Assembly (NCBI RefSeq): GCF_026626585.1
Contig: NZ_JAPNKD010000014.1
Coordinates: 1 to 29,206, forward strand
Source of the DNA: Nannocystis sp. ILAH1
Lineage (GTDB): Bacteria; Myxococcota_A; Polyangia; Nannocystales; Nannocystaceae
Direction of reading: 5' to 3'
DNA length: 29,206 bases
Positions 4,461 to 27,700 of this stretch are shown piece after piece. The stretch's first letter is position 1. Each line of letters opens with the position of its first letter. Made by a program: the position numbers and the translations under genes. The notes under the pieces are model-generated. The model searched no databases and was not told the DNA's origin. It saw nothing but the letters and a program-made list of their open reading frames with translations.

Positions 4461-5669
4461 TCAGGGCAATTTATCGCCCGTGTCGCACAGGAAGCGGAAG
4501 CTGTAGCCGCCCGGCTGGGGCAGGGCCTTGTAGCTCTTCACGCTGCCGTCCTGGTTCCACTGGTAGAGCATCGAACAGCCCTCGCACGCCCCGAGCTCGT
4601 CGGGCTCGCCGCTGCCGACGGCGACGTCGCTGACGAACCACGCCTGGTCGTCGCCGGCGCGCCACTCGGGACAGTCGAGCCCGTTGAGCGGCGCGTCGAC
4701 GCAGCTCTCGCCCGCGGTGACTGGATAGATCCCCAAAATCTGCAGGTAATCGGCGCCGCTCTTCACCGTGCCGCCCCCGACCGGCTCGAGATTGTCGCCG
4801 GTGGCGACCTCGTAGGCGACGCCGAGGTGCGCCGGGCTGCGCGGGACGAACAGCTGCATGCCCCAGTCGGCGCAGGCGGCCTCGGCGGTGGCGGCGGTGG
4901 CCGGGTTGGGGTTCATGCCGCCGGCGACGTCGACCTTGAGGAAGGTGTAACCGCCGCCGTCGACGGCCGGATCGAGGGCGCACCAGACGTCGATCGGGTC
5001 CATGATGCCTTCGCGGCGGACGCTGAAGACGCCGCTGACGGCCTCGGGGGTGGCCTCCAGCCACTCGAGGCAGCTGTGGGCGTACCGGCAGGTGGGCAGG
5101 CAGTCGGGGCCGTCCTCGCAGTCCTCGTTCTCGGGATCGACCTGGCCGTCGCCGCAGCCGGGGGCGGCGGCGCTGCAGTCGGCGAGGCAGCTGCCGTAGG
5201 TGCCGTCGTTGGTGCCGTCGTCGCAGACCTCGTCGCCGTTGAGGACGCCGTCACCGCAGGCGGGCAGGAGGCAGGCGGTGGTACAGGCGCCGTCGTCGGC
5301 GTTGTCGGGGCCGAGGTCGCACTCCTCGGCGTCCTTGGCGACGAGGCCGTCACCGCACGTGGCGTTGCGACAGTCGGAGGTGCAGGCGCCGTCGTCGGCG
5401 TTGTCGGGGCCGAGGTCGCACTGCTCGTCGGCGTCGACGAAGCCGTCGCCGCACACGGGCTCGGCGGTGGTGGCGGGCTCGCTCGTGGTCGGTTCGCCCG
5501 TGGTCGGGTCGCTCGGGGAGACGCCGGTGGTGTCGACGGCGGTGGTGGTGCCCGGGCCGGTGGCGGTCGACTCGGTCTCGGTGTTGGCGTTGGGGTCGAG
5601 GCAGGCCTGCAGGGCCAGGGCCGTGACGCTCAGTTGCAGCGAGATCCGGAGACGCGGCGCGGTGGGCAT
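4461..5669 (-). CDS. Putative lipoprotein (402 aa): signal peptide/lipobox (ALALQAC), Thr-rich linker, 4-5 Myxococcus cysteine-rich repeats (CGDGxV..EECDxG), C-terminal ~200-aa globular domain (possibly C-type-lectin-like)
   Basis: ATG at 5667-5669 and high GC3. Repeats read directly (CGDGFVDADEQCDLGPDNADDGACTSDCRNAT; CGDGLVAKDAEECDLGPDNADDGACTTACLLPA; CGDGVLNGDEVCDDGTNDGTYGSCLADCSAAAPG; CGDGQVDPENEDCEDGPDCLPTC). The C-terminal segment AEAACADWGMQLFVPRSPAHL is CTLD-like, from memory only. Confidence 0.85.
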   Translation of the reverse strand: MPTAPRLRISLQLSVTALALQACLDPNANTETESTATGPGTTTAVDTTGVSPSDPTTGEPTTSEPATTAEPVCGDGFVDADEQCDLGPDNADDGACTSDCRNATCGDGLVAKDAEECDLGPDNADDGACTTACLLPACGDGVLNGDEVCDDGTNDGTYGSCLADCSAAAPGCGDGQVDPENEDCEDGPDCLPTCRYAHSCLEWLEATPEAVSGVFSVRREGIMDPIDVWCALDPAVDGGGYTFLKVDVAGGMNPNPATAATAEAACADWGMQLFVPRSPAHLGVAYEVATGDNLEPVGGGTVKSGADYLQILGIYPVTAGESCVDAPLNGLDCPEWRAGDDQAWFVSDVAVGSGEPDELGACEGCSMLYQWNQDGSVKSYKALPQPGGYSFRFLCDTGDKLP

Positions 5670-5763
5670 GTTCGAGGGATTTGTCCACGATTCAGCCGGG
5701 GCCGCAAGAGGCGCGAGGCGAGGCGAGCTGAATCAAAAGACAGGGGCGTGGGAATGCGACGAG

Positions 5764-5790
5764 GCCGCGAGCCCCTGGCGGGCTCGCGGC
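5764..5790 (-). terminator. Perfect 11-bp stem / 5-nt loop hairpin (GCCGCGAGCCC-CTGGC-GGGCTCGCGGC) 25 nt downstream of the giant TPR gene stop and ~95 nt upstream of the next gene (start 5669); attenuator/terminator or processing site
   Basis: Arms are exact reverse complements. On the minus strand a U-richer tract CUGUCUUUUGAUU follows about 28 nt later. Same family as the hairpin at 508-532 (CCGYGAGYCC...GGRCTCRCGG). Confidence 0.4.
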
Positions 5791-5814
5791 CTCGAGGACG
5801 GCCTCAGGGGCGCG

Positions 5815-8800
5815 TCAGCGCGACTTGACCTCGAAGCCGAGGGCGCGGCGGGCCCCGACGTAGGCGGGGCTGACTGCGAAGACCAGGAGGTCGCGCAGGT
5901 CGGCGTCGAAGGCCGCGCGGGCCTTGAGGGCGGCGCTGCGTTCGCCTGGCTCTTGGGGCAGGCCGAGGATGTCGAGGGCGGCGCCGAGGTTGCGCGACAG
6001 GCACAGGCCGACGCGGTCGCCGGAGCGCTGGACCCATGCGCGCCAGTCGCGGCTGTCGAAGCCCTCCTGCTCGCGCTCCTTGAAGCCGGTGCTGAGCTGG
6101 CGGGCCAGGCGGATCGGCAGCTTGCGCGCGAGGGTCTGGCCGAGCCGCGTGGCCAGGTCGGCCTCGTCGCGGGCGCGCACGCGCCGGGTGTGGCGCGGGT
6201 GGAAGGCCTGCAGGGCGGCCGCGAGGACGCCGGCGAACAGCGGCTTCGGCAGGCCGGAGACGAGGATCGCGGCGGGGCGGGTGAAGAACATCGCGCGCCC
6301 GAGGGCGAAGCGCAGCCGCGGGGCGGTGGTCTCGGCGCGGGCGGCCGGGCCGACGAGGATCACCGGCGGGTGCACGCACGAGACGCTGGTCCAGCCGCCC
6401 TCGACGCGCATGTCGGGGAGCAGCTCGACGTCGGCGAGGCGCACGCCCTGGGCCGGCATCTGCGTGCCGAGCTCGGTCCAGACCTTCCACAGGAGGGTGT
6501 CCTTGTCGGTCTCGGCCTCGATCCAGGCGGCCTCGCTGAACTGCGGGCGCGGCAGCTCTTCGGCGAGCAGCTCGGCGGCGCCCTCCCACAGCGCGGTGAG
6601 AGCCGGGACGACGCCGGCGTCGGCGGGGGCCGGGTCGATGACCGTGGCGGGGTCGAGCTTGCCGCTGCGCACCGACAGCAGCTCGTGGCTGGTGAGGAAG
6701 GCGCCGGCCTCGGCGTGGCCGGGGCTGACGATCCGCAAGAGCTGGTGGATGGCGTGGGCGCGGCCCTCCTCGCCGTTCTCGGCGCAGTGGCGGGCGAGCG
6801 CGGCCAGGCTGGCCTCGTCGAGCGGGTCGAGGTGGAGCAGGGCGTCGGAGTTGCTGCGCACCTGCGGGCCCTGGATCTTCTCGTCGGCGTAGAGCCGGGC
6901 GAGCTGGCGCCGCGGGGCCAGGCCGAGGCCGGTCGGGTCGAGCTCGGCGGCCCGCTCGAGCAGCCGGATCGCCTGCGCGGGTCGGCTGTCCTTCGGGTCA
7001 GGCGAGGGCTCGGCCTGGACCACGAGGTCGGCCAGGCGGACCAGCAGGCGCTGGCGATCGCGGGCCTCGCGTGGGTCACCAGGCGGCTTCTGGACGCTGT
7101 CCTTGGCCAGGTAGGCGCGCACCGCCGGCTCGATCTCGTCGACGGCGCCGGCGGCCCGCAGGGCGTCGACGAGGCCGTGGATCGGGGCGGCGGCGTCGGG
7201 CAGCAGCTCGACCGCGGCGCGGGCGTAGCCGAGCGCGCGCTCGGGGTCGCCGGGTTCGCCGCGCTGGAGGGCGATCTTGACGCCCTCGAGCAGGAAGCCG
7301 GCCCGCTTGGCGTCGCGCAGGTCGGGGTGGTGCAGCAGGCGGTCGAGGCAGCCGAGGGCGATGCCGGCGTTGCGCGAGACGGCGGTCCAGAAGGCGGCCT
7401 CGAGCTGGCGGCGGTCGAGGACCGGGTGCGGGATGTGCTGGATCAGGGCGAGGCCGGCCTGGACGGCGTCGAAGGCGGCGCCGAGGATCTTCTGCGCGGA
7501 GACGCTGACGACGGTCTCCTCGCCGGTCTCGGCGGCGGCCCCTGCGGCCTCGTGGAACAGCATGCCGGCGGCGAGCAGGGCCCGGCCGCGGGCCTCGGGG
7601 TCCTGCTCGAGGTCGGCGAGGGCGAGGGTGTGCTCGGCGGCGTCGACCAGCCTGCCTGACTCTTGGGCCAGCTGGGCCAGGGCCGCGCGGGCCTTGCGGT
7701 GGCGCGGGGCCAGCTCGAGGGCGCGGGCGTAGCGAGCGGCGAGGCGCTCGGCGGGGGCGTTCTGCTTGGCGTCGCACTCGGCGGCGAGGATCAGCAGGTC
7801 GGCGACCACGGGGGCGCGCTCGGGCGGGACCGGGGTGCCGGCGGCGAGGCGCTGCTCGACCGGCTCGAGCGCGGCGACTGCGTCGCGGTGGCGGCCGGCG
7901 GCGGCGCGGTTGTGGGCCATGGCGGCGCGGATCTCGAGGTCGTCGGGGACGTGGCGCAGGGCCATCGAGAGGCGGCGGTAGGCCTCGTTGGCGCGGTCTG
8001 TCTGTTCGAACAGGTGCGCCAGCATCAGCAGGCCCTCGACCAGGCGCGGCTGATCGCGGGTGAGGCCGAACGCCTCGACCGCGGCCTCGAGGATGGCCTC
8101 GGCCTCGGCGTGCAGGCCGGCGTCGATGAGGGCCGCGCCGAGGGCCAGGCGCGCGGGCGCGTAGTCGGGGTCGGCGGCGAGGGCGGCCTCGAAGCGCTGG
8201 CGGGCGCGCGCGAGCTCCTGGCCGCCGCGCAGCAGGGCGCGGCCGCTCTCGGTGAGGATCCGGGCGCGGATCTCGGGGTCGTCGATCTGGGCCAGCTGGG
8301 CGTCGAGCAGGGCGTCGGCGCCGTCGAGGTCGCCGGCGGCCAGGCGCAGGCCGACCAGGCCCTCGATCGCCTGCGACAGCCGGCGGCTGCGCTGCGGGGC
8401 GCCGGGGGCCAGCTCGGCGAGGACGCGGGTGAACAGCTGGGCAGCCAGCTCGGGCTCGCGCAGGCGGTCGCGGGCGATCGCGGCGGCCTCGAGGATGCCG
8501 TCGGGCTCGGCGACGGCGGCGAGGCTGACGGTGAGGGCCCGGTCGTCGCCGAGGGTCCGCGCGAGGGCGACGCGGCGCTGCTGCAGGCCGAGCGCGGCCT
8601 CCGGCGGGGCGGCGGCGAGCGCCTCGTCGAGGGTCTCGAGCGCGCCGCGGGGGTCACCTGCCTCTTCGGCCAGGGCGGTCGCCAGGGCCTCGGCGATGCG
8701 CACGCGGCGGGCCGCCAGCGCCGGCGAGACCGGCTCGGGGATGTCGAACGGCAGCGGCTCCTCGTCGAGCGGCTCGGCGCGGACCTCCATGTCGCTGACG

Positions 8801-11800
8801 ATCTCGGCCAGGCGCCGGCGCAGCATCTCGACGCCGTCGTCCATGCGCCCGCCCTTGCGGTAGAGGCGGGACAGGCCGAGCACGACGTCGTCGTTCTCGG
8901 GGGCCTCGGCGGCGAGGGTCTCGAGGGTCCCTTGCGCGGCGGCCTCGTCGCCCTGGCCCTCTTGCAGGGCGCGGGCCTTGACGACGAGGAGGGCGATGCG
9001 GGCGTCGCGGTCGCCGGGCGCGACCTGGGTCAGGCGGCGGTCGAGGATCGGCAGCAGCTTGGCGTACTGCTCGGTGCGCAGGTAGAGGCTCTGCAGGCGC
9101 ACCAGGGCGTCGGGGTCGCCGGGGTTGTGGTCGAGGACCTCGGACCAGCCGGCGATCGCGGCGGCCGGCTGGCCGAGGCGCTCCTCGGTGAGGGTGGCGG
9201 CGCGGGCCAGGCAGCGCACGCGCGCGTCGGGGTTGGGCACGACCTCGGCGGCGGAGCGCAGGGCCTCGACGGCGCGGACCCACAGGCCCTCGCGCTGGAG
9301 GATCTCGATCAGCTCGGCGTGGACGTCGGCGGTCTCGGGGGTCTCCTTGACCAGCGCCTCGAGGCGGCGGATGGCCTCGAGCGAGCGGTCGGCGCGGTAG
9401 GCGAGGTCGCGCGCGAGCTGCAGGACGCGGGGGATCCGCTCGTCCAGCGGGAGGCCGTCGGCCTCGACGTCGTAGAGGCGCGCCGAGGCCTCGGCGGCCT
9501 CGCGCTCGCGGCCGGTCTTGGCGTGCAGCGCGGCCAGGCTGCGCAGCGCGCCCAGGTGCTTCGCCGAGACGGCGAGCACGCCGCGGTACTGCTCCTCGGC
9601 GCGCTCGGGCTGACCTGTCTGTTCGTACAGGTCGGCGAGGCGCAGGTGATAGGCGACGATGTGCTCGGGCAGGGTGAGGTCGGACAGCAGGCGCGACAGC
9701 GCGGCGATCAGGCGCTCCGGGTCGGCTGTCCTTTCGGCCATGTGGACGAGGCCCGAGAGCGCGACCGCGTCGTCGGGCACCAGCGCGAGGGCCTCCTCGT
9801 AGCGCTCGAGCGCGGCGTCGGGCATGCCGGCGCCCTCGTCCCACAGGCGAGCGAGCAGGCGCTGCAGGCCGGCGCGCTCGGACTTGCTGGCGGGGACGAC
9901 CGAGGCGTAGGCGTGGGCCAGCTCGTGCCAGGCGGAGCTGGCGGACGGGCGGCCGGGCAGGACCGGGGCGTCGAGCTCGGGCAGGGCCGGCAGGCCGGCG
10001 GTGACGGCGTCGATCAGCTCGCGGCTGGCGACCGGGGGCGGCGGCGGCAAGCTGGCCGCAGGGACAGGCTCAGGCGGGCGCGAGGGCGGCGGCGGGGCGG
10101 CGGGGCGGCGGGCCGGCGGCGGGGCCTTGGCGACCGGCTTGCCGCCCGGCGGGCGCGGCGGGGTCGGCTTGAGCGGCTTGGCGGCGGGCCGCGGCAGCGA
10201 GCGCTTGTGGGCGACCGGGCGCGGGGCGTCGTCGTCGAGCTCGAGCATCTCGTCGAGGTCGAGCACGCCCGAGACCTCGGCGCTCGGGCGCTTCGGCGCC
10301 GGGCCGACCAGGCTGTCCTCGATCGGCTCGAGGTCGGCGAGGTCGAACACGCCGCTCTCCTGGCGCGGCAGGCCGGCCGCGCGCACGCTGACCGAGCCGG
10401 ACGCCTCGACGGCCTCGAGGTCGGCGATGTCGACGATGTCGGTCTCGCCGCGGGCCGGCCGCGGGGCGCGGATCTTGACCGCGGTGGCCGACAGCTCGAC
10501 GGGCTCGAGGTCGGCGAGGTCGACGATGTTGGTGTGCGTCTCGCTGCGGACGGTCTTGCCCGGGCGGGCGACGACCTCCTTGCCACCGCCGCGCCGCAGC
10601 TCCTCGAGCGGCTCGAGCTCGGACAGCTGGATCTCGGCGGTCGGGCGCGACACCTCCTCGAGGTCGTCGAGCTCCATCACGCTCGACTCCTCTTTCTTGC
10701 GGGCCTTGACGGCCATGCGCGGGGCGAGCGTGTCGGGGTCGAGGCCGAGCTTGCGCCACTGGTCGCGGTCGGCCAGCTCGGGCGGGACGATCTGCGGCCA
10801 CAGCAGCGGGTCGCGGGCCGGCGGCGGGGCGGTGTAGGTGCCGGTCAGGCTGGCGAGGTGCCACATCTTGCTGTGGACGGGCCCGAGCTCACCTGTCTCG
10901 GGGGGCAGGTCGCCCTGCAGCTTCCAGGCGGCGATCCGGGCCCTGAGCGCGTACTCGGGCCGGCCGAGGCAGTTCTCGTAGAGCTCGGCGATCTGGGTCA
11001 GGAGCTTGCCCTGCTGGGCCCTGCCTGTCCCGAAGGCCAGCTCGCTCGCGGGCGCGAGCAGGAGCAGGTGCCACAGGTTGTCGCGCTCGGCCAGGCGGTC
11101 GAGCTCGAAGCGGGCCTCCTCGCTGCCGGGGTGGAGCGAGAGGGCGCGCAGCCACTCGGCGATGGCGCCGGCGGTGTCGCCGAGGCCGGCGCGCAGCTCG
11201 GCGCGGCGCTTGAGCAGCGACAGCTTGAGCGCGGGGTCGACGGTCTGGCCGATGATCTGCTGGGTGACCGACAGCAGGGTGAGCGCGCCGGTCGGCGGGG
11301 TGTCGGGGCTGCGCTTCTCGTCGACCTTGGCGGCCATCGCCTCGATCGCGGGCATCAGCGCGGTGCCGTCGCGGTCGTAGGCGACGCCGAGCCGCAGGGT
11401 GCGCAGGGCCGCGAGCGGGTCCTGGCGCTTCTCGTAGTCGATGCGCGCCGAGTCCTTGAGCTGGTTGAGGCCGCCGCGTTCGTTGCGCTGCAGCTTGGCG
11501 AGCGCGAGGCCGCGGTGGTGATCGGCGAGCTCGGGCCAGAGCTGGTGGCGCTGGGCCAGCTCGGTCATCAGGCCGGCGGCCTCCTCGGCGAGCGAGGGAT
11601 CGGCGGGGCGCAGGTCGGTCTCGGCCCGCCGCAGCCACTGGAACGCGCGCTTGTGATCGTTGAGGTGGCGCTCGTAGATCTTGGCGATGGCGACGCAGGC
11701 GTCGAAGCGGCCGAGGCCGGTCTTGGCGCGGCCGAGCTTGAGCTCCTGCAGGTCGATCAGCGCCTGCCACATCTGGTGGGCCTCGCCGAGGGCCTCGATC

Positions 11801-14800
11801 TGGCGCCCGAGGTCGTCGTCGTCGGGGCGCAGCTTGTAGGCGCGCTGCAGGTAGCCGATCGCGCGCGCGGGGTCGCCGAGGCGCTCGCGCGCGATCTCGG
11901 CGGCCGACATCAACAGGGCGATGGTGCCGTAGTCGCCGTAGTTGGGGGTCTTCTCCTGGAAGGCCAGCTCCTGCTCGCTGACGTCGAGCATCTGCGGCCA
12001 CAGGCCGTGGGCCTGGGCCAGGCCCTCGAGGCGGTCGAGCACGGTGCCGGCGTCGAGGCCGGCGCGCAGGGCCACGAAGTAGGCCTTGCGGGCCCAGGCG
12101 AAGGCGAGGTCGGGGTCGCCGATCTTCTTCTCGGCGGTGGCCGAGGCGCCGAGGCACAGGTCGATCTGGCCGCGGCTCTCCGCGCGGCCGCTCATCTCGG
12201 TGAAGCGCTCGCCGTAGACGACGAGCAGGTCCTTGTACATGCCGTGGCGCTCGGCGAACGCCTCGATCTTCTGCTTGAGGTCGCGGCTGCCGGGGGCGAT
12301 GCCGAGGGCCCGCCCGAGCAGCGCGAGCGCCCGCTTGGCGTGGCCGAGCCCGAACTCGCACACCTCGGCCATCTGCTCGAGGGTGACGACCTGCTGGGCG
12401 GCGTCGGTGAGGCTCTCGAGGCGCTTGCCGAGAGTGTCGAGGGTGGCCTGGTGGTCGCCGGCCAGCGCCTGCAGCTCGCCGAGGATCTTGAGGCCCTCGC
12501 CGTCGTCGGGCTCCTCGCGCATGAACCGCTGGAAGGCGGCGATGGCCTTGTGCGGGGCGTTGAGGTTGACGACGTAGGTGCGGGCGACCAGCGAGAACAG
12601 CTCGCGCCGCTCGTCGGTCTCGAGCGCCGAGAGCAGGAGGATCTCGGCGTGGCGGATCAGGCGGTCGAACTGGCCGGCGCGCTCGTACAGCTCGAGCAGC
12701 TTGAGGGCGACGTCGCGGTTGCCGACGGCGGCGTTCGAGCTGAGCTGCTCGAGCACGCGGATGGCGGCGGCCGGGTTGTCGAGCCGGTCGGCCAGGACCT
12801 CGGCGCGCTCCCAGCCGATGCCGAGCGCCTCCTCGTCGCTGTCGGCCATGTCCTGCAGGGTGCCGAGCGAGGCGGCCAGGCCGTGCCAGCTGCCGAGGTT
12901 GCGGTAGAGGCGGGTCAGCGCCTCGGTGGCGCCGCGGTGGTCGCGGTGGATCCGCAGCGCGCGCTCGAAGGCCGAGCAGGCCAGGTCGGCGTCGCCGAGC
13001 GACGACTCGGCGACGTGGCCCAGGCGCATGAGATAGTCGAGCTGGCGGATCGGCGGGGTGCGGGCCGAGCTGGCGGCCTTGCCGAGCAGGTTGGCGAGCT
13101 CCTCGCGGTTGCCGAGCGCCTCGTAGGCGGCGATCAGCTTGTCGGTGACCTCGAGGTTGTGCGGGTCGCCGGCCTGCAGCTGCGTCCACGCCTGGGCCGA
13201 GCGCTGCGGGTCCTGCAGCTTGCGGTCGGCGACGTCGGCCATGCGCCGGATGATGCGGGTGCGCTGGGCCGGGTCTCCGACGAGGCCGAGCTCGCGCGAC
13301 AGCGCCTCGTACTCGCCGCCGGCGTCGCCGAGCTCGGCGCACAAGCCCTGCATGCGGTGGACCGCGTCCATGTCCGACGGGCTGTAGCCGAGGATCTGCT
13401 CGCAGGCCCACAGCGCCTCGCGCGGGCTGTGCAGCTCGTGCTGCCACAGCTCGGCCATGCGCCGCAGCAGGACCACGCGCTGCGAGATGCTGCGGGTGAC
13501 GTCGTGCTGGCGCCGCAGCAGGTCGATGACCTGGTCGTAGGCACCTGTCCGTTCGTACATCTCGGCGAGCGCGCGCAGGGCCCCCTCGTGGCCGGGCGCG
13601 AGCGCCAGCATCTCCTGCAGCAGGACGATGGTGCGCTGGGGGTCGGTCATGCGCTCGCGGTGGGCCTGCGACAGCCGGCGCAACACCTCGAAGCGGCGCT
13701 GCGGATCGACGGTGCGCTGCAGCTCGGCCTCGAGGGTGGCGAGGTTGGCGTCGAGCATGCGCGCGCGCTTGTCGATGCGGGCGATCTGGTCGCGCGGGCG
13801 CCAGTCGTTGGGGTAGGCGAGGGCGAGCCGGTTCCAGGCGTCGAGGGCGCCGGCGAGGTCGCCGAGGCGGCGCTCGTAGATCTCGGCCAGCTCGACGAAG
13901 TGCTCGGCGAACTCGGAGCGAGCGAGCGGGCTGTCCGGGCCGCCGCCCATCTGCAGGGCCTGGTCGCCCTGGTAGAGGATGAGGCCGGCGAGGTGCGACC
14001 AGTTGTTCTTGCGCCGCCAGTGCTCCTTGTAGCCCTCGAAGGCCTCGTGATTGAAGGGCTCGCGCTCGAGCACGCGGTAGAAGCTGACCGCGGCCCGCTC
14101 CTCGTCGCCGAGGTCCTCGCGGGCGACGCGGGCGGCCCACAGCAGCTTGTCGGTCGGCAGACCGCCGGGGTCCTGCTCGGACCAGCGCTCGTACAGGCTG
14201 ACGAGACCGTGGTTGTCGCCGAGCTCGACCAGCAAGGCCTCGAGGCGCAGCCAGGCGTCGCCGCCGGGCCGCTCGAGCCGCGAGGCCTGCTCGTAGCAGG
14301 CGCGGGCCTCCTCGCGGCGGGCGAGGCGAGTCTCGAGCAGCTCGCCGCGCGACAGCCACAGGCCGTAGCTGTCGGCCTCGGTGACATAGCCGATCCACGC
14401 CCCGTAGAGGTCGTCGAGCTCCATCCACTTCTCCTGCGCCATCAACAGCTCGGCGAGGGCGTTGCCGGCCTCGTGATGGTCGGGACGCAGGCTCATGGCC
14501 CGGCGCAGCAGGCTGTAGGCGATCTTGTCGTCGCCCTGGCTGCGCGCGAGCTTGGCGGCGCGGAAGAACACGTCGGCGGCCTTCTGCAGGCCCTCGTCGC
14601 TGGCCTTGCCGCTGCCGAGGTAGAGGGCGCCGAAGGCCCGCAGGGCGGCGACGTCGTCCGGGTTGGCCTTGAGCGCGGCCTGCAGGTGGAGCGCGGCGGA
14701 GGGGATGTTCTCGAGCTGCTCGGCCTCGATCCGCGCGAGGCGGAGGTGAAGGGCGGCGAAGCGGTCGCGCTCGCGGACGTTGTCGGTGCGCGCGAGCTCG

Positions 14801-15432
14801 GCGTTGATCAGATCGATGACGCGCAGCCAGGCGCCAGCCTGGAGATGAAGCCGGATGAGCTGATCGCTGGCGTCGCGCTCCTGGGGGTTGATCTCGAGCG
14901 CGGCCCTGTAGCAAGCGATGGCCTCGTCGACCTGACAGCGCTGCTCGTCGACCTTGCCGAGCTCGACGAGCGCGCCAGGGACCGCGCCCCGATCGTGCCG
15001 CCGCAGGTGGTCGAGGCGGAACTTGAGCAAGGTGGCAAGCTCGTCGAGGCTGCCGAGCTCGCCGTAGACCTTGCGCAGTTGCTCGTAGGCGCGGCTGTTG
15101 TGCGGCTCGGCCTGGAGGGCGCGCACGAGGGCGTAGGCGGCCTGGGGCTTGTCCTTGACGCGGTCGTACCAGAGCTCGTAGGCCTGGACGCACAGCTCGG
15201 CGACCTTCGGCGGGCCACTGATCGCTGCAGCGTGCACGACGAGCAAGGTGGCGAGGGCGCTCCAGTTCTCGGCCTCGCGGAAGGCCCGTCGCAGCTTCAA
15301 GAAGGCGTCGTCGCTGGGCTTGGCGCGAAACGCCCCGAGCTCGGGCGGCTCTCCATGAGCCACGGGCGGCAGCGGGCAAGGCAGATCGTGAGGCGAGGGC
15401 TGGCGCTTGGGCGCGACGGCGGTTTCGGGCAT
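5815..15432 (-). CDS. Giant cytoplasmic TPR-repeat protein (about 3,200 aa). Two long TPR super-helical regions are separated by an acidic repeat array ([IV]xDLADLEPxE x5-6) and a polyproline segment; ~330-aa C-terminal domain of unknown function
   Basis: Uninterrupted 9.7-kb ORF with high GC3. Dozens of TPR signatures (LAxLYExxGxxxxA..Y). No signal peptide. Start ambiguous between ATG at 15432 (preferred) and TTG at 15516 (track). Resembles the giant TPR proteins of myxobacteria (an AgmK/GltE-like size class), but no motility-gene neighbours are present, so no symbol is assigned. Confidence 0.9.
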   Translation of the reverse strand: MPETAVAPKRQPSPHDLPCPLPPVAHGEPPELGAFRAKPSDDAFLKLRRAFREAENWSALATLLVVHAAAISGPPKVAELCVQAYELWYDRVKDKPQAAYALVRALQAEPHNSRAYEQLRKVYGELGSLDELATLLKFRLDHLRRHDRGAVPGALVELGKVDEQRCQVDEAIACYRAALEINPQERDASDQLIRLHLQAGAWLRVIDLINAELARTDNVRERDRFAALHLRLARIEAEQLENIPSAALHLQAALKANPDDVAALRAFGALYLGSGKASDEGLQKAADVFFRAAKLARSQGDDKIAYSLLRRAMSLRPDHHEAGNALAELLMAQEKWMELDDLYGAWIGYVTEADSYGLWLSRGELLETRLARREEARACYEQASRLERPGGDAWLRLEALLVELGDNHGLVSLYERWSEQDPGGLPTDKLLWAARVAREDLGDEERAAVSFYRVLEREPFNHEAFEGYKEHWRRKNNWSHLAGLILYQGDQALQMGGGPDSPLARSEFAEHFVELAEIYERRLGDLAGALDAWNRLALAYPNDWRPRDQIARIDKRARMLDANLATLEAELQRTVDPQRRFEVLRRLSQAHRERMTDPQRTIVLLQEMLALAPGHEGALRALAEMYERTGAYDQVIDLLRRQHDVTRSISQRVVLLRRMAELWQHELHSPREALWACEQILGYSPSDMDAVHRMQGLCAELGDAGGEYEALSRELGLVGDPAQRTRIIRRMADVADRKLQDPQRSAQAWTQLQAGDPHNLEVTDKLIAAYEALGNREELANLLGKAASSARTPPIRQLDYLMRLGHVAESSLGDADLACSAFERALRIHRDHRGATEALTRLYRNLGSWHGLAASLGTLQDMADSDEEALGIGWERAEVLADRLDNPAAAIRVLEQLSSNAAVGNRDVALKLLELYERAGQFDRLIRHAEILLLSALETDERRELFSLVARTYVVNLNAPHKAIAAFQRFMREEPDDGEGLKILGELQALAGDHQATLDTLGKRLESLTDAAQQVVTLEQMAEVCEFGLGHAKRALALLGRALGIAPGSRDLKQKIEAFAERHGMYKDLLVVYGERFTEMSGRAESRGQIDLCLGASATAEKKIGDPDLAFAWARKAYFVALRAGLDAGTVLDRLEGLAQAHGLWPQMLDVSEQELAFQEKTPNYGDYGTIALLMSAAEIARERLGDPARAIGYLQRAYKLRPDDDDLGRQIEALGEAHQMWQALIDLQELKLGRAKTGLGRFDACVAIAKIYERHLNDHKRAFQWLRRAETDLRPADPSLAEEAAGLMTELAQRHQLWPELADHHRGLALAKLQRNERGGLNQLKDSARIDYEKRQDPLAALRTLRLGVAYDRDGTALMPAIEAMAAKVDEKRSPDTPPTGALTLLSVTQQIIGQTVDPALKLSLLKRRAELRAGLGDTAGAIAEWLRALSLHPGSEEARFELDRLAERDNLWHLLLLAPASELAFGTGRAQQGKLLTQIAELYENCLGRPEYALRARIAAWKLQGDLPPETGELGPVHSKMWHLASLTGTYTAPPPARDPLLWPQIVPPELADRDQWRKLGLDPDTLAPRMAVKARKKEESSVMELDDLEEVSRPTAEIQLSELEPLEELRRGGGKEVVARPGKTVRSETHTNIVDLADLEPVELSATAVKIRAPRPARGETDIVDIADLEAVEASGSVSVRAAGLPRQESGVFDLADLEPIEDSLVGPAPKRPSAEVSGVLDLDEMLELDDDAPRPVAHKRSLPRPAAKPLKPTPPRPPGGKPVAKAPPPARRPAAPPPPSRPPEPVPAASLPPPPPVASRELIDAVTAGLPALPELDAPVLPGRPSASSAWHELAHAYASVVPASKSERAGLQRLLARLWDEGAGMPDAALERYEEALALVPDDAVALSGLVHMAERTADPERLIAALSRLLSDLTLPEHIVAYHLRLADLYEQTGQPERAEEQYRGVLAVSAKHLGALRSLAALHAKTGREREAAEASARLYDVEADGLPLDERIPRVLQLARDLAYRADRSLEAIRRLEALVKETPETADVHAELIEILQREGLWVRAVEALRSAAEVVPNPDARVRCLARAATLTEERLGQPAAAIAGWSEVLDHNPGDPDALVRLQSLYLRTEQYAKLLPILDRRLTQVAPGDRDARIALLVVKARALQEGQGDEAAAQGTLETLAAEAPENDDVVLGLSRLYRKGGRMDDGVEMLRRRLAEIVSDMEVRAEPLDEEPLPFDIPEPVSPALAARRVRIAEALATALAEEAGDPRGALETLDEALAAAPPEAALGLQQRRVALARTLGDDRALTVSLAAVAEPDGILEAAAIARDRLREPELAAQLFTRVLAELAPGAPQRSRRLSQAIEGLVGLRLAAGDLDGADALLDAQLAQIDDPEIRARILTESGRALLRGGQELARARQRFEAALAADPDYAPARLALGAALIDAGLHAEAEAILEAAVEAFGLTRDQPRLVEGLLMLAHLFEQTDRANEAYRRLSMALRHVPDDLEIRAAMAHNRAAAGRHRDAVAALEPVEQRLAAGTPVPPERAPVVADLLILAAECDAKQNAPAERLAARYARALELAPRHRKARAALAQLAQESGRLVDAAEHTLALADLEQDPEARGRALLAAGMLFHEAAGAAAETGEETVVSVSAQKILGAAFDAVQAGLALIQHIPHPVLDRRQLEAAFWTAVSRNAGIALGCLDRLLHHPDLRDAKRAGFLLEGVKIALQRGEPGDPERALGYARAAVELLPDAAAPIHGLVDALRAAGAVDEIEPAVRAYLAKDSVQKPPGDPREARDRQRLLVRLADLVVQAEPSPDPKDSRPAQAIRLLERAAELDPTGLGLAPRRQLARLYADEKIQGPQVRSNSDALLHLDPLDEASLAALARHCAENGEEGRAHAIHQLLRIVSPGHAEAGAFLTSHELLSVRSGKLDPATVIDPAPADAGVVPALTALWEGAAELLAEELPRPQFSEAAWIEAETDKDTLLWKVWTELGTQMPAQGVRLADVELLPDMRVEGGWTSVSCVHPPVILVGPAARAETTAPRLRFALGRAMFFTRPAAILVSGLPKPLFAGVLAAALQAFHPRHTRRVRARDEADLATRLGQTLARKLPIRLARQLSTGFKEREQEGFDSRDWRAWVQRSGDRVGLCLSRNLGAALDILGLPQEPGERSAALKARAAFDADLRDLLVFAVSPAYVGARRALGFEVKSR

Positions 15433-15658
15433 GGGCGTGGGCCGCGAGCGGGGCCGCCCAAGGTACCACGGCCGCCCTGGCGTGTGGTTTGCGGGCGGAC
15501 AGGTGACCGTGGGCAAGATCGCGCGCGTGGCGGGACACGGAGGGTCGGCGATTGGGGGCGGGAGGCCCGATCGTCGGGGCGCTGTCGCGCTCGTGAATGG
15601 GTGAGGGATTCTGCGCGGGGGGCTCGGCGCTCAGCATATTGCCGACTGCGCCTCGCGG

Positions 15659-15760
15659 GGGGTCCGGGGAAGCGGCGGCCGCGAGTTAACCGGCGGGATG
15701 GACACTCGTTCCTCGCGCCCATCTCGCCTCTAATTCGCGGCCGCCGCTTCCCCGGACCCC
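15659..15760. promoter_or_regulatory. Perfect 26-bp inverted repeat (GGGGTCCGGGGAAGCGGCGGCCGCGA ... TCGCGGCCGCCGCTTCCCCGGACCCC) flanking a 50-bp AT-richer spacer (contains TTAACC, CTCTAATT); lies 140-240 bp upstream of the giant TPR gene
   Basis: Arms at 15659-15684 and 15735-15760 are exact reverse complements. The spacer is conspicuously AT-rich for this genome. No convincing target-site duplication, so a MITE is not supported. Candidate large operator or cruciform element in the TPR-operon promoter region. Confidence 0.5.
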
Positions 15761-15835
15761 TGGCACGGCTGCAGCCGTGAGAGGCCCGCACGCCGTCGTG
15801 GGCTTCGATGCAGAGGCTGCCCCGGCGGAGAGCGC

Positions 15836-15928
15836 GAGGCGTCTGTTCGACGGCCAGGGCTGGCCGCCGAACAGACGCCATTTCACGAACCGGGCGGCGT
15901 GCGTCTGTCGGAGACGATTGGTGTGAGG
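15836..15928 (+). repeat. Copy 1 of a duplicated ~95-nt structured element: 19-bp-stem hairpin GCGTCTGTTCGACGGCCAG-GG-CTGGCCGCCGAACAGACGC followed by CATTTCACG.., a second small stem CGTCTGTCGGAGACG, then GTGTGAGG
   Basis: About 85-90% identical over ~95 nt to 16400-16490 in the same orientation. An additional shared GACGATGATG lies 25-35 nt further downstream in both. A sigma-54-like TGGCACG at 15762-15768 lies ~70 nt upstream on the same strand (GG/GC spacing fits only with a poor -12 element). Confidence 0.55.
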
Positions 15929-16348
15929 ACTCGGGGAACTCGGGTGGCGAGAGATGACGATGATGTTTTCGGGGACGGTGCTCGGCTTCGGTGCCGTGAT
16001 TGTCGTGATGGGGGATCGGGGCGATCGTGCTCGCGGGATGCCCGATGCGCCGATATTCTGGTGGGCGCCGACGAGAGCTGACGCGATGCTGCATGCAATG
16101 GGCCTCGGCAAGCGCAGAATGACGAATGGCGATAGCGGGCAGGGCGATTCGTCGCTCGTGCTCGATGAGGATGACGGGGTTCCGGCAGGTCAGGCAGCGA
16201 GGTGCAGGTGTATCGCTCGATGCAGTCGACGGCCGCGCAGGCTCGCGACGTGGCGCAGGCGGAGGCCGCGGTCGAGCACGACGCTGGCGTGATCCGGCCT
16301 CCTGCGGGCATGACAGGCGGACGGATCCGTTGTCGCAGCGCGCGGTCG

Positions 16349-16375
16349 AAAAAAAATCGCTCGCGCATGGGCGCG
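16349..16375 (-). terminator. T8 run (A8 on the plus strand, 16349-16356) preceded on the minus strand by a short GC stem (CGCGC-CCAT-GCGCG); candidate intrinsic terminator for the ferritin-like gene / copy-2 element transcript
   Basis: Homopolymer 8-mers are very rare in a 70% GC genome. The stem is only 5 bp and sits 5 nt from the U-run, hence low confidence. Confidence 0.3.
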
Positions 16376-16399
16376 CGGGTCCGGGGCGTGACGACGACA

Positions 16400-16490
16400 G
16401 GAGCGTCTATTCGACGGTCAGGGCTGGCCCGCCGACAGACGCGATTCACGATTCGGGCTGCGTGCGTCTTCCGGAGACGATCGTGTGAGG
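16400..16490 (+). repeat. Copy 2 of the duplicated structured element (GAGCGTCTATTCGACGGTCAGGGCTGGCCCGCCGACAGACGCGATTCACG...GTGTGAGG), ~107 nt beyond the stop of the ferritin-like gene
   Basis: Aligned by eye to copy 1. The hairpin arms are retained with a few compensatory or mismatched positions. A translated frame is not conserved between copies (the copy-2 frame hits a stop), so the similarity is at RNA/DNA level. Confidence 0.55.
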
Positions 16491-16596
16491 CCTCATCGCG
16501 CGCGGAGGCAGGGCGACGACGATGATGATTCCGGCGACGGAGGCTCGCGTGGGCGGTGCCATGATTCGGTGATTGGAGCTCGGTGGCGTGCCGGGT

Positions 16597-17643
16597 TCAG
16601 GCGGCCGCGGACCAGAGTTCGCGGTCGAGGGTTTTCCAGAGGCGGCGCGCGAGGTCGGGTGCGGGCAGGCCGGCGCGCCGTTCGAGGGCTTCGTCGCGGG
16701 GTGGCGGATCGCGGAGGGCGCGGGCGGCCTGCGAGCGGGCTGTGAGAAGGCGGGTCCGTTCGTCGGCGGTCAGGAGGGGGGCGATCCAGGCGTCGATGGC
16801 CCAGGCGAGGTCGGCGTGGGCGGCCTCGTCGGCGGCGACTTCGATCATGCAGGCGCGGATCTCGGGGTCCTCGGCGGCTCGCGCCTGATGGGCGGCGAGC
16901 AGGGCGGCCCAGGTCTCGCCGACGCAGCCCTCGACTGCGTTCTCGATCGCCAGCTCGACGAGCGAACGGCTGTGCGTGGGCGCGAGCTCGACGGGGCTGG
17001 GGCGACCGCCGAGGCGGATGGCGATCGCGCCGAGGTGGTCAGCGTGGCGGGCCTCGTCGACCGCTGCGCGGAGGGCCGCGGCGATCAGATCGGCGGGGGC
17101 GTCGTGCTCGCGGAGTTCGGCCGCGAGGCGCTCGAAGGCGGGGACGCTGGCGGCCTCGAGGTGCGCGACCTCGGCGAACCACCGCGCGATGGGATCGTCG
17201 CCGCCGCTGCGACCCTCGGAGCAGAGGCCGGCGGGGCGCCGACCGCCCTTGCAGGAGGTCTCGTACTGGCAGCGGATGTCGCTCTTGCTGGCGGGAATGG
17301 CGGCGCAACCGAGCACGGTGGACGTGCGCGGGGCGTTGTCGTCGTCGACGGCGCCGGTGGTCGAGGTGGGGTCGCTGGTGGTGTCGCCGGTGGTCGAGGT
17401 GCTCGAGCTCGTGCTGCTCGGCTCGTCAGGGACAGCGGAAGGCGGCGGCGCAGGATTCATGGGGCACAGGACCTGGCACTCGGCGAGGGTGAGGTTGCCG
17501 TCCTCGATGTAGGGCGCGAGCCGGTTGGCGCCAATCGCAGTGACTTGTTCGTAAGTACAGGGGTCGTCGGCTCCGCACCCGCTCGCAGTGACCTCGGCGA
17601 GGAGCGAGGCGAACAAGAGGGAGAGTCGACGGTCGCCGAGCAT
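16597..17643 (-). CDS. Secreted/lipoprotein ferritin-like (di-iron, rubrerythrin/ferritin-like superfamily) protein: signal peptide with Cys (LLAEVTASGC), Ser/Thr-rich linker, ferritin-like four-helix region with two EXXH motifs (DEARHADH, DEAAHADL)
   Basis: ATG at 17643 (the track start at 17661 is GTG). High GC3. EXXH pairs read directly. Pattern matches the ferritin-like domain-containing protein family, from memory. Confidence 0.75.
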   Translation of the reverse strand: MLGDRRLSLLFASLLAEVTASGCGADDPCTYEQVTAIGANRLAPYIEDGNLTLAECQVLCPMNPAPPPSAVPDEPSSTSSSTSTTGDTTSDPTSTTGAVDDDNAPRTSTVLGCAAIPASKSDIRCQYETSCKGGRRPAGLCSEGRSGGDDPIARWFAEVAHLEAASVPAFERLAAELREHDAPADLIAAALRAAVDEARHADHLGAIAIRLGGRPSPVELAPTHSRSLVELAIENAVEGCVGETWAALLAAHQARAAEDPEIRACMIEVAADEAAHADLAWAIDAWIAPLLTADERTRLLTARSQAARALRDPPPRDEALERRAGLPAPDLARRLWKTLDRELWSAAA

Positions 17644-19051: not shown

Positions 19052-19195
19052 GCTCGGTCGGACGAGTATGCCCAATCGCGGCCCGGCGGCGCCGAGGGAG
19101 ATGGCTTTGGGGACAGGTGATTGCGGGCTCAAAGGCGCGTCGATCGCGCTGCGCTGGCTGAGGACGGCCGGGTCGGGCTACATTGGCGTCCAGCG

Positions 19196-20515
19196 ATGCA
19201 GACCGGGACGTACGCGGAGCTCGAGGCGCGATTGACGGGGTTGGCGACGGCGGCCGCGGGCGGGGACGCGGCGGCGTCTGGATCGCTGACGCGCGAGCTG
19301 GAGGCGCTGGCCGCGGCGCCGGCGTGCCGCGAGGGCTGGCCGCGGCCCGGCAGCGTGGCGTTCAAGGCGTTCGACGTGTTCCTCGAGGTCGAGGGGGCCG
19401 ATCGATCGTCGACGCTGGAGGGGCTCGCGGGGCCGTTCCTGCGGGCGATCGCGGCCCATCCGGAGACCCTCGGGGTGCCGCACGGCTTCCGGCCGGCGGC
19501 GACGCTCGGGTTGTCGGCGATCCCGCTGCTGGTGGCGCTGCTGGACAGCGGGCTGCGGCGGACGACGCGAGCGGCGATCGAAGCGCTCGGCGAGTACAAC
19601 CCGAACAACGAGGTCGGGTTCAAGCTGGCGGGCGAGGCGGTGAGCCGCTTGCTGGCGTACGCGGACGGCGAGGCGGTCGCGGACGGGTTGATGAAGATCG
19701 AGTGGAACGACGAGCGGCTGTGGCTGCTGTTCCGCGTGCTGGCGGACGGGAACTCGCTGCTCCCGGCGAACCGCGGGCCGGCGGCCCCGGTGGCCCTGGC
19801 GCGGCTGGTGGCGGCGACTGCCACGATCACGGGTTCGGGGGCGGACAGGCTGCGAGCGCTGCTGCTGCGGGCGAAGCTCATCCCGAAGGCGATGGCGCCG
19901 GGGATCGTGCTGGCGAGGCTGCCGAAGCAGCTGCCGCACACGGTGGCGGAGGCGCTGGCGCTGATGACCGCGTGGGAGCTGACGCCGGCCGAGGTGGCGG
20001 CGAAGGGACCGGCGCGGGCGCGCGAGATCGAGGCGCTGGCGAATCACGTGAGCGCCCGGCTGCCGCAGGAATTGAGGCAATTGCTGGCGACGCACGCGGC
20101 GCTCGGATCGCGCGACTTCGGGCCGCCGGCGCGCATGCGCCAGCTGTTCCGCGAAATGAGGGGGACGATCGAGGACGACGAGGAGGAGGCAGACGACCCG
20201 CCGAGCGGCCGCGGGCGCTACGACGTGCGCGGCTTCGATCCGGCGAAGAAGGCCATCCCGCTCGGCAGCGATCCGTCCGGCGACCTGTTCTTCCTGGCGA
20301 CGGGGGCGAAGTCGGAGGCGAACGCGGCGCCGGTGATCCGCTTCCGCCACGATCAGGCGCTGGTGGCCACGATCGCGGCCGACTCGCTCGGCGAGTACGT
20401 GGCGCTGATTTTGGCCCGCGCGTACGCCCGCCGCGAGGGGCTCGAGGCGCAGCTCGACAAGCTCGAGGGGCGCAAGCGGACGATCGTGTCGGGGTACAGG
20501 CCGCCGAAGCGATGA
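19196..20515 (+). CDS. Hypothetical protein (about 440 aa) with a C-terminal SMI1/KNR4-like (SUKH superfamily) domain; N-terminal alpha-helical region unknown
   Basis: High GC3. The C-terminal KKAIPLGSDPSGDLFFLATG....APVIRFRHDQALVATIAADSLGEYVALILA matches the SMI1/KNR4 pattern (IPhG.D..Gn.hCLD...... V..hDHD....l..IA.SF.EFL), from memory. Start could instead be the TTG at 19121 (track). Confidence 0.65.
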   Translation: MQTGTYAELEARLTGLATAAAGGDAAASGSLTRELEALAAAPACREGWPRPGSVAFKAFDVFLEVEGADRSSTLEGLAGPFLRAIAAHPETLGVPHGFRPAATLGLSAIPLLVALLDSGLRRTTRAAIEALGEYNPNNEVGFKLAGEAVSRLLAYADGEAVADGLMKIEWNDERLWLLFRVLADGNSLLPANRGPAAPVALARLVAATATITGSGADRLRALLLRAKLIPKAMAPGIVLARLPKQLPHTVAEALALMTAWELTPAEVAAKGPARAREIEALANHVSARLPQELRQLLATHAALGSRDFGPPARMRQLFREMRGTIEDDEEEADDPPSGRGRYDVRGFDPAKKAIPLGSDPSGDLFFLATGAKSEANAAPVIRFRHDQALVATIAADSLGEYVALILARAYARREGLEAQLDKLEGRKRTIVSGYRPPKR

Positions 20516-24703: not shown

Positions 24704-27700
24704 TCACGGCTTATCACGGCCGACGGAGACCGGCAGCTCGACGATGAACGTGGCCCCGGCGCCTGGGGGGCTGACGCATCGGATCGACCCGCCGTGGGCC
24801 TCGACGAGCCTGCGGCTGATGTACAGCCCGAGGCCCAGGCCCCCGTAGTGCTTCTCCGACACCGCACGCTCGAAGCGCCCGAAGATCCGGTCGCGCTGCT
24901 CCGGGGCGATGCCGATGCCGTGGTCCCGGACCGCGAGCCGCGCCACGCCGCCCTCCGCGCCGACGAAGAGCTCGATGGGCTCGCCGGCCCCGAACTTGAT
25001 GGCATTGGAGAGCAGGTTGGTCACGACCCGGTCGATACGGGAGCGATCCCATCTCCCCACGACCGGAGCGCCGCTATCGATCGACACCGGGCAGCGGGCG
25101 CGCGTAAGATCCATCTCGAAGCGCTCGGCCACCTCGCGGACGAGGGCGACGAGGTCGACGTCGGTGAGCTCCAGCGGCAATGGCCCCGCCTCCATCCGCG
25201 AGACGTCGAGCAGATCGTTGGTGAGCCTGGTCAGTCGGGCTCCCTGCCGCCCGGCGAGCTCGACCAGCCTGTCGACGGTTTGCGGATCCATGGGCCGCCC
25301 CAAGAGCGTCGCCCGGCGCAAGGACTCGAGCGCGAGCATGAGCGAGGTCACCGGGGTGTTCAGCTCGTGGGAAGCGACGGTGAGGAACTCGCTCCGTGCG
25401 CGGACGGCCTCCTGAGAGGCGCGGTAGAGACGTGCGTTGTCGATCGCGGTCGCGGCGCGGCACGCTGCTTCCTGCGCCAGCTCGAGATCGGCGCGCCCGT
25501 AGCGGCCCGGCACGGCCGAGACGATGCTCAGCACCCCGAGCGTCTGCCCGCGCGCCACGAGCGGCACCATCATGGAGCTCTGTGCCCCGAGCTCGCGGAG
25601 CAACCTCTTGTGCTCGTCGTCCACGGTGATCGTTCGCATGTGCTCGTCGGGGAGCCGAGGGAACAGGAGCGGCGCACCCGTCCTGAGGACCACGGCCGCC
25701 GGGTGGGGCGAGTCCCAGTGAGGGGGATACCGCCGCTGGAGCTCCTCGATCAATCGCTCCTTCGCGGGATCCTTGTGTGCCCCGGAGACGCGCTGGATCC
25801 CCCCGGCCTCCACGACGTCGATCAGGCAAAAGTCGCAGATCGATCGCACGCACAGCCGTCCGAGGCGGTCCAGCGTCTGCTCGTAATCGAGGGACGCGGA
25901 CAGGATCTTCCCGGCCTCGGCCAGAAAGGCCGCGCGCTGGAGGAGCAACGCGTTCTCGAGCGAGATGGCCGCCTGCGTGGCGCAGAGCGAGAGGGCGACG
26001 AGCCGATCGGGCGTGAAGGCGCCGGCGAGGAGGTTGTTCTCGAGGTAGAGCAGCCCGACCACCTCGGCCTGCCGCAGGATCGGCATACAGAGGACCGACT
26101 TGGGCCGGTGCCGGGCGAAGTAGTCGTCGCCGCCGAGCTTATCGGCGTCGGCGGCGGCGTCGCTCAAAATGACGCGTTCCTTCGTCCGGTGCGCATAGTG
26201 GACGACGGACGCAGGGAGGCGCTGGGAACCATCCACGGGCGCGGGCTCGAGGACGGTCGTCACCAACCCCTTGTGTTCGAGGGTCGCCTCCGCCTCGATC
26301 GAGAGGCTCTCGTCGCGACACAGGACGAGGCAAGCCCTCTGCGCGCCGCCCTGCTCGAGCACGATAGCGAGCAGCGTGCGCACCAGCTTGTCGAGGACGA
26401 TCTCGCTCGAGATGGTCTGCGAGGCCTTGGTCACCGAGTAGAGGTCGAGCTCGACGGGCCGAACCGCGACGGTGGCGGTGGGCGCGAAGGTCCTGGGCTC
26501 GAAGAGCCGGGGATGTTGCCGATCGAGCTGCTTCACTTTGCCGTCGGCCCCCCACAGGGCATAACAGGCGCGCGCGTCGCGGAGATGGGCAAAGCCGTTC
26601 TTGTCGAGGCCGCGGTCGAGATAGAACCGGCCGGCCAGCTCGTTGGCCAGCGCCTCGTTCTGCACGAAGCCGTTGTCGTGGGCCGAGCGGATGGCCCGCT
26701 CGTAGAGGCGCATGGCATCGAGGTCGCGGCCCGAAACGCGCGCGAGCTCGGCGTCCACCAACGCAGCGCGGTTCTCGAAATTCTCCGGGCAATCCCGAGC
26801 CCATCTCGCGAGCGCTTCGCGGTGGGCGGCCAGAGCTTCGACATGCTGCTGCCGTTGGCTGGCCGCGGTGGCATCGCAGGAGGCGGCGTGAGACAGCGCG
26901 CCGTAAAAGTGATAGTCTGCCGTCTCGATGAATGATGGCAATGTCCAGAGCAACTGCTGCGCCCTCGATGCTGCCGCGACGGCGGCCCCATGATCGCCGG
27001 CGAAGAAGCGCGCCTGCAGCTTCTCGATCCAGTAGCGGCACTCGGCCTGCGCCAGCACCGGATTGTTCGCCAAATGGCGCTCGAACCGCCGCTCGTCGAA
27101 CTGCCCGTCGTCGAAGGAGCCGAATGTCGGCGTCGCGCCGCGCAGCGTCCGGACGAGCTGGAGCTGCGCGGTGATGATGTCCGCGGCGAAGCCGAACCGC
27201 GCCTTCTGGGCGAACTCCAGGCCATCCTCGGCTTCGCGTTGCACCTCGACGAGCGGATCTCCTGCCGTGAGCCTGATGCTGTTCAGCTGGAAACAGCTGC
27301 ATGCGGCGAACGTGAGGTCACCGGTCTCATTCGCCGCCTCGAAGGCGCGACGCGCCAGGTCACGGCCAGCCCGCACAGGCCTCATCCACGGCATGACCAT
27401 GGTTCCGAAGACCATGTAAGTCCTGCCCTGGAAGCGCTTCAACCCGCGTCGTTCGACCAGTTCGTAGCCGAGCTGACCGAACCGGAATCCAGCCTCGGAG
27501 TGACTGAAGAGCGGCCCGGCGACCATGCCGACGTTGGGATATGCGAGGCACGAACCATCGCTGTTGCCGTGCTCGAGGCTCAAATTCACGGCCCTGCAGG
27601 CGACCAGGGCGAACAGCCTCACATCCGTGAGGACCGCAGGCGACGCGACTTTGGTCAGGACATCCAGAGTAGCGAGGGATGCCGGGTCGGTCATCAAGGG

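Follow-up and report, generated by a model that had tools for sequence, protein, structure and literature searches.

The intergenic region upstream of the giant TPR gene

The DNA analysed (the window) is a stretch of 29,206 nt from the myxobacterium Nannocystis sp. ILAH1, with a GC content of 72%. A gene for a giant TPR protein lies on its minus strand, and the next gene upstream, in the same direction, encodes a ferritin-like lipoprotein. The interval between them, 15433–16596, was non-coding as judged by GC3 analysis and the ORF listing, and contains a long hairpin built around a perfect inverted repeat. Syntenic loci (PAP2 gene, ferritin-like gene, variable segment and giant TPR gene) were collected through orthologues of the ferritin-like gene. 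Three N. pusilla strains carry the hairpin in the same position: Na p29 (locus L009), GCA_049060185 (L011), which is a long-read assembly with obvious indel errors, and CP185339 (L025). The hairpin was missing from an equally close strain (locus L014), where the 5′ end of the TPR gene is 95.6% identical to the window, and from N. exedens (L012 and L013). The features of the locus are as follows.

5815–15432, minus strand: giant TPR protein gene, 3,205 aa, with its ATG at 15432; orthologues are called at 3,206 aa
15433–15560, minus strand: TPR leader, or promoter-proximal region, nearly invariant across Nannocystis, hairpin-less strains included
15632–15925, minus strand: conserved non-coding block of ~300 nt (module A, hairpin B and the big hairpin), common to ILAH1, Na p29, L011 and L025
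15838–15879, no strand assigned: hairpin A, a 20-bp stem with one mismatch, within a ~140-bp module (module A, 15839–15978) that is duplicated at 16403–16540
16352–16377, minus strand: classical intrinsic terminator past the end of the ferritin-like gene (terminator scan), with a GC stem of 6 bp and then a run of T; kept in L025
16597–17643, minus strand: ferritin-like lipoprotein gene, the next gene upstream of the TPR gene; its product is 100% identical to a protein of Nannocystis sp. ILAH1

The flanking genes, and the cassette genes that lie between them in other strains, all run in the minus direction of the window. Between the cassette and TPR genes the terminator scan called no canonical terminator. 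The window has no tRNA, and the ORFs scanned in it include no transposase, integrase or reverse transcriptase; no regulator gene adjoins the hairpin. A coding function for the hairpin region was rejected on the grounds that there was no GC3 signal over 15450–16570, no Pfam match for the overlapping ORFs, and 1-nt indels between strains. Other genes nearby encode a SUKH/SMI1-KNR4 protein (19121–20515, plus strand), two DUF4215 Cys-rich repeat proteins (620–2635 and 4461–5669, both minus strand) and a 1,469-aa AAA-GAF-histidine kinase (24704–29113, minus strand); none of these has an evident tie to the hairpin.

The ~125 nt next to the TPR start codon were near-identical among Nannocystis species, including N. 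exedens (L012, 9464–9551), and carried 1-nt indels, which marks them as non-coding. They can be folded into an imperfect hairpin of ~30 pairs (CGCGCGATCTTGCCCACGGTCACC...GGCCGTGGTACCTTGGGCGG...GCTCGCG). We take 15433–15560 as a candidate for a conserved leader, or for a regulatory element, that serves the TPR gene. A sigma-54 promoter in this leader (TGGTAC...GGGC) was considered and discarded on inspection, as its spacing is wrong. At the other end of the gene, a 13-bp GC-rich hairpin lacking a U tract begins 21 nt past the TPR stop codon (5760–5794, minus strand; GAGGCCGCGAGCC-CGCCAGG-GGCTCGCGGCCTC) and is likely to be a 3′-end structure of the giant TPR gene. Gene calls for the TPR protein were split or shortened in Na p29 (289 aa and at least 2,511 aa; L009, 9867–13041) and in L011 (9027–12840). 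Small indels in the coding sequence of L011 relative to the other strains are consistent with long-read assembly errors and not with biology.

The inverted repeat and its fold

An earlier note on this DNA had described a perfect 26-bp inverted repeat at 15659–15760, upstream of the giant TPR gene, and had called it exceptional. Both points hold. Positions 15659–15684 pair without mismatch with 15735–15760, giving 26-nt arms and a length of 102 nt end to end; the plus-strand sequence of the first arm is GGGGTCCGGGGAAGCGGCGGCCGCGA, and its reverse complement forms the second. The nearer arm lies 226 nt upstream of the TPR start codon, and the symmetric site as a whole spans 226–330 nt upstream of it. 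The number of perfect 26-nt inverted repeats expected in the window with a spacer of up to 300 nt, calculated analytically, is 1.6 × 10−7. No further copy of the 26-mer was found within the window with up to three mismatches allowed, and none of 100 shuffles gave any match. When 14001–17500 was shuffled 20 times, the longest perfect inverted repeat reached only 9–14 nt. The parts of the structure, with the arms named as they would be read in TPR-sense RNA, are listed below.

15643–15777, minus strand: extended imperfect helix with 57 predicted pairs in total, including weaker flank pairing beyond the 102-nt core
15659–15684, minus strand: 3′ arm of the perfect 26-nt repeat; three other strains have T at a paired position, giving G·T or G·U (alignment columns 47:116)
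15685–15734, minus strand: spacer, with a self-complementary inner stem and a 9-nt loop; the compensatory changes of L025 fall in the inner stem
15735–15760, minus strand: 5′ arm of the perfect 26-nt repeat, invariant in four strains bar a likely sequencing indel in L011
15764–15779, no strand assigned: hairpin B, a small perfect palindrome of 16 bp (CACGGCTGCAGCCGTG) adjoining the big hairpin, invariant in four strains

The spacer proved different from its first description as an AT-rich core and the most AT-rich stretch of the area. At 60% GC, compared with 72% for the window, its 50 nt are among the lowest 4% of 50-mers, but 15917–15970 is more AT-rich still, at 56% GC. The spacer is, moreover, self-complementary. 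The arms run on inward to 30 nt with one mismatch (limits at 15688 and 15731), and 15692–15701 then pairs with 15719–15728 in an inner stem, the length of which was put at 10–14 bp. The whole 102 nt thus form one almost unbroken stem of ~45 bp closed by a 9-nt terminal loop (minus strand). The extended helix has arms of 39 nt that are 87% complementary, and hairpin B is an alternative to this outer extension of the big stem.

Folding of 151 nt gave −116 kcal/mol for the minus strand (z = −10.0) and −113 kcal/mol for the plus strand (z = −9.7). The repeat is real and statistically exceptional, and it is the core of a single long hairpin.

Copy number and the strain-variable slot

The earlier note had offered, among its explanations, a tiny MITE-like insertion, with a search for genomic copies as the check. 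Scans were made with the exact 22-mer of the arm, later with R at the known variable site; exact-word scans of this kind mostly miss copies less than ~90% identical. Multiple copies were not found. Across 185,579 species genomes (GTDB, one each), N. pusilla Na p29 alone gave a match beyond chance, its orthologous copy, in a locus 96.3% identical to the window over 7.5 kb; four more single-arm matches, in Streptomyces and unrelated MAGs, were due to chance. JGI metagenomes returned seven single-arm chance matches only. The arm 22-mer had no match in IMG/VR, blastn of plasmid and phage collections returned nothing, and the Na p29 genome held no second copy sharing the 22-mer. A covariance model built from the four orthologues was run over 156 kb of sequence from Nannocystis and related loci and recovered these copies and nothing else.

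As had been noted before, there is no clear target-site duplication: none of 3 nt or more was present at the hairpin ends (flanks ...CCTCGCGG and TGGCACGG...) or at offsets of 1–3 nt. The hairpin does possess one MITE trait, terminal inverted repeats bounding a short non-coding element. With a single orthologue as the only match, no duplication and no transposase, these searches do not support a young or abundant MITE, though they are compatible with an old family whose copies are less than ~90% identical. A Tn3-family terminal inverted repeat, considered as the arm begins GGGGTC, was ruled out by eye: the Tn3 pattern GAAAA...ACGYTAAG did not occur at the expected spacing, and there was no 5-bp duplication.

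MITEs and palindromic repeats such as Correia/NEMIS, ERIC and REP/BIME resemble the hairpin in being intergenic and ~100 nt long, with terminal inverted repeats of 26–30 bp that form a long hairpin if transcribed, and REP-type elements stabilise upstream mRNA. Correia/NEMIS, ERIC and REP/BIME are multi-copy, however, and MITEs carry a target-site duplication, whereas the Nannocystis hairpin is single-copy at the sensitivity of the scans and has no duplication. Its complementarity leaks weakly into the flanks beyond the arms and fades gradually there, unlike the sharp termini of MITE-type families.

Comparison of the syntenic loci indicates that the DNA from the ferritin-like stop codon to ~15610 is a strain-variable cassette slot. 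Its range and content in each locus were as follows.

Window (ILAH1), 15610–16596: no gene
L009 (Na p29), 7041–9650: gene for a 259-aa protein and a low-GC gene for a 202-aa protein
L011, 6840–8700: gene for the 259-aa protein, which is Cys-rich
L025, 7038–8870: gene for the 259-aa Cys-rich protein
L014, 2496–4822: unrelated genes for proteins of 84 aa and 285 aa
L012 (N. exedens), 7075–9400: unrelated gene for a 502-aa DUF8385 protein

The 259-aa gene is also present in N. pusilla GCA_049337375 (L010), the contig of which stops 57 nt short of the hairpin (locus position 9312, equivalent to 15817 in the window); the strong hairpin, or else a repeat, may have broken the assembly there. ILAH1 has kept the upstream region of the 259-aa gene and lost the coding part. 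In N. bainbridge, the 259-aa gene and ~190 nt upstream of it occur at an unrelated locus (L026, 7820–8766), with no hairpin block.

Within the slot, the two copies of module A (15839–15978 and 16403–16540) are in direct orientation and 71–86% identical, and in other strains copies of the module flank the inserted cassette genes. This is the pattern that Campbell-type integration or an old duplication would leave. Hairpin A is preceded by CCGACAGACGC, which could pair instead with the 5′ half of that hairpin. Right after the ferritin-like gene, Na p29 carries four to five tandem 52-bp repeats (L009, 7043–7291), of which ILAH1 has about one unit (16532–16588).

Comparison of the intergenic region in relatives had been suggested in the earlier note as a way to look for an empty site. 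The hairpin was indeed absent from L014 and N. exedens, which carry other cassettes, but a clean empty site was not found: homology to the window starts only at ~15570–15610 in these loci, and the entire segment has been swapped. What they do retain is the conserved leader, ~125–180 nt upstream of the ATG. The hairpin was also missing from the short upstream regions of distant partial homologues identified through the N-terminal 400 aa of the TPR protein. Since the leader is almost invariant even where there is no hairpin, the hairpin lies outside the conserved TPR control region, which weighs against a role as an operator and against a core role in the 5′-UTR.

A large operator or cruciform, also put forward in the earlier note, is weakened by this comparison. 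On such an account a dimeric protein that regulates the TPR gene would bind the repeat at the DNA level, as a large operator, a cruciform or a looping site. The symmetric sequence of the repeat 226–330 nt upstream of the start codon and the near-invariance of its outer arms among the four carriers would fit. A TPR operator would, however, be kept alongside the promoter it serves, and L014 and N. exedens have the TPR gene and its conserved leader and lack the site. Arms of 26–30 bp that run on into an inner stem are unlike operator half-sites, the changes in the inner stem keep pairing and not sequence, and, as noted above, a regulator gene does not adjoin. We regard a protein-binding site of this kind as improbable.

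The hairpin is thus a lineage-restricted, single-copy structure in a variable slot of the N. pusilla group, and is a further example of a familiar kind of feature, a stem-loop or palindrome between genes. It represents no new mobile-element family, no known RNA family and no conserved TPR regulator site. With regard to RNA families, no Rfam family reached its gathering threshold, and only generic microRNA-precursor hairpins were returned, at 25–47 bits compared with thresholds of 70–100.

Pairing, strand asymmetry and possible roles

Conservation around the hairpin was confined to the ~300-nt block. Differences per 100 nt numbered 3–11 inside the block (~90–95% conserved) and 24–37 in the indel-rich flanks, and the hairpin showed no extra conservation over the rest of the block (Fisher p = 0.84). 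The perfect 26-mer occurs in ILAH1 alone; the three other carriers have T opposite G, which would be G·U in minus-strand RNA. In L025, two pairs of the inner stem are altered on both sides, from C-G to G-C and from A-U to G-C, and a further G·U has become G-C. ILAH1 has the A·C intermediate of the A-U to G-C change. Across the four carriers 98.7% of cells were paired, compared with 39–46% when the partners were slid. The covariation was not statistically significant (69 of 500 shuffles reached it), the sample being four close sequences with both double changes in one strain.

These data have to be weighed against a functionless origin, which is the main rival to any functional reading. The hairpin would then be a neutral DNA palindrome, a relic of an old inverted duplication or a dead single-copy MITE-like insertion, held near-perfect by hairpin-templated (quasi-palindrome) correction and not by selection. 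It occurs in one clade only, within a hypervariable segment where insertions and deletions are common, and is still present in ILAH1 despite the deletion of the neighbouring cassette gene. The changes observed tend to perfect the palindrome: ILAH1 alone has gone from G·T to G-C, giving the 26-mer, and in L025 five to six clustered substitutions have made the inner stem perfect over 12 bp. Conservation no higher than that of the surrounding block, and covariation short of significance, would also be expected. Nevertheless, a second copy, a target-site duplication and a transposase are all missing, and the host block is far better conserved than the adjacent spacers. The leftover mismatches, in addition, lean to G·U on one strand, which a symmetric double-stranded process does not predict. 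We consider a neutral palindrome possible, though rather unlikely.

The strand asymmetry was apparent both in the mismatches and in the predicted energies. At consensus positions that are not Watson–Crick pairs, a minus-strand reading gave ~6 G·U and ~1 A·C, and this G·U bias on the minus strand makes the sense RNA stabler than the antisense. The core folded more stably as TPR-sense RNA in all four strains, by 2.8, 18.0, 9.8 and 3.4 kcal/mol. This favours an RNA read in the TPR-sense direction, but is suggestive only, as the strains are related.

Of the explanations in the earlier note, the riboregulatory stem in the 5′-UTR fared best, and in part. A stem acting as RNA is the best-supported option, given the kept pairing, the two double changes and the G·U pairs that favour the sense strand. 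Its assignment to the 5′-UTR is less likely, since the hairpin sits in a variable segment upstream of the conserved leader. For the same reason, it is more likely to be a 3′ end or insulator of upstream transcription than a conserved part of the TPR 5′-UTR. Our preferred reading, which we hold tentatively, is of a sense-strand RNA hairpin that serves as a 3′-end, insulator or RNase III element before the giant TPR gene.

The mechanism we infer, from transcription of the hairpin and its strand to termination or cleavage, would run as follows. The hairpin lies at the downstream end of the cassette-bearing variable segment, ~50 nt ahead of the conserved TPR promoter or leader. Transcripts from the upstream ferritin-like or cassette units would enter it, and the stem would fold. 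The stem could then set or stabilise a 3′ end by stopping 3′→5′ exonucleases. It would also be a likely substrate for RNase III, being a perfect duplex longer than 22 bp; RNase III acts on duplexes of more than 22 bp. By either route, read-through RNA would be uncoupled from the TPR unit, and the hairpin would act as an insulator.

Several observations are consistent with the sense-strand RNA hairpin. The fold is extreme and non-random, pairing is kept in four of four carriers, the genes on either side are co-directional, and the sense strand is the stabler. The sole canonical terminator lies right after the ferritin-like gene, and the hairpin is inside the conserved block of ~300 nt. Since the 13-bp hairpin past the TPR stop codon also lacks a U tract, such hairpins do occur at gene ends in the ILAH1 genome.

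Other observations argue against it. The stem is GC-rich, as in an intrinsic terminator, but is followed by no U tract on either strand (the tail reads CCGCGAGG in the minus direction and TGGCACGG in the plus direction), and the terminator scan made no call there; at 45 bp it also far exceeds normal terminator size. The non-significant covariation, and conservation no better than that of the block, count here as well. The upstream cassette gene has been deleted in ILAH1, which leaves the hairpin without an obvious gene to serve there, and the 259-aa cassette gene of N. bainbridge occurs without the hairpin block. Finally, a hairpin in single-stranded DNA would fit the strand asymmetry equally.

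Two known kinds of RNA hairpin are comparable. U-less ('I-shaped') GC-rich hairpins of high-GC bacteria, proposed as terminators or 3′-end stabilisers, likewise have a GC stem without a U tract and an intergenic position between co-directional genes, and the smaller hairpin past the TPR stop codon is of this form. They have stems of 6–15 bp, however, whereas the Nannocystis stem is ~45 bp, is separated by several hundred nt from the closest stop codon upstream, and is only a putative terminator. RNase III hairpins (phage T7 early mRNA sites, the rnc and pnp leaders) are similar in being long, near-perfect double-stranded RNA of more than 22 bp between transcription units. Known RNase III sites tend to be shorter and have internal loops, which direct the enzyme to cut once, and the Nannocystis stem is by comparison a predicted substrate.

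The alternative in which the structure works as single-stranded DNA takes two forms, an orphan retro-copy resembling msDNA (retron msd) or a recombination site for the variable cassettes. A lead comes from the literature: Lampson & Rice (1997) and Lampson et al. (2002), as cited in PMC6868368, reported repeats resembling msDNA in N. exedens, along with a partial msDNA copy that had been retrotransposed. Like those repeats, the present hairpin comes from Nannocystis and is long, hairpin-forming and non-coding, with no adjacent reverse transcriptase; unlike them, it is unrepeated, and it is missing from the N. exedens locus examined. A hairpin of ~100–135 nt is msd-sized, it borders a cassette-variable slot that has the direct repeats of module A on either side, and the G·T asymmetry would suit a single-stranded form.

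On the other side, 15000–17000 matched no retron-like RNA family in Rfam and showed no msr RNA, the ORFs of the window that were scanned encode neither a reverse transcriptase nor an integrase, and the Na p29 genome lacks a second (source) copy sharing the 22-mer. With regard to integron attC sites, the hairpin ends read GGGGTCC...GGACCCC, and GTTRRRY / RYYYAAC core sites were not visible by eye; an integron integrase was not found in the window, and the cassette junctions examined lie off the stem. A single-stranded DNA hairpin of either form therefore seems to us quite improbable. The more specific proposal is of an orphan integrated msDNA-like copy, or other single-stranded DNA hairpin, that marks one edge of a slot for cassette exchange, with the duplicated module A forming the bounds of the slot; this appears very improbable. 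If true, the hairpin would be a fossil of retro-transposition or of hairpin-mediated recombination in Nannocystis, as was suggested in the 1990s for N. exedens.

If the sense-strand RNA hairpin is indeed an insulator or RNase III site, it would shield a conserved giant gene from read-through of its variable, cassette-swapping neighbours. Otherwise, it would be an ordinary lineage-restricted intergenic palindrome. The carriers in any case provide a natural strain series in which an imperfect palindrome drifts and is perfected again, through the change from G·T to G-C in ILAH1 and the perfected inner stem in L025.
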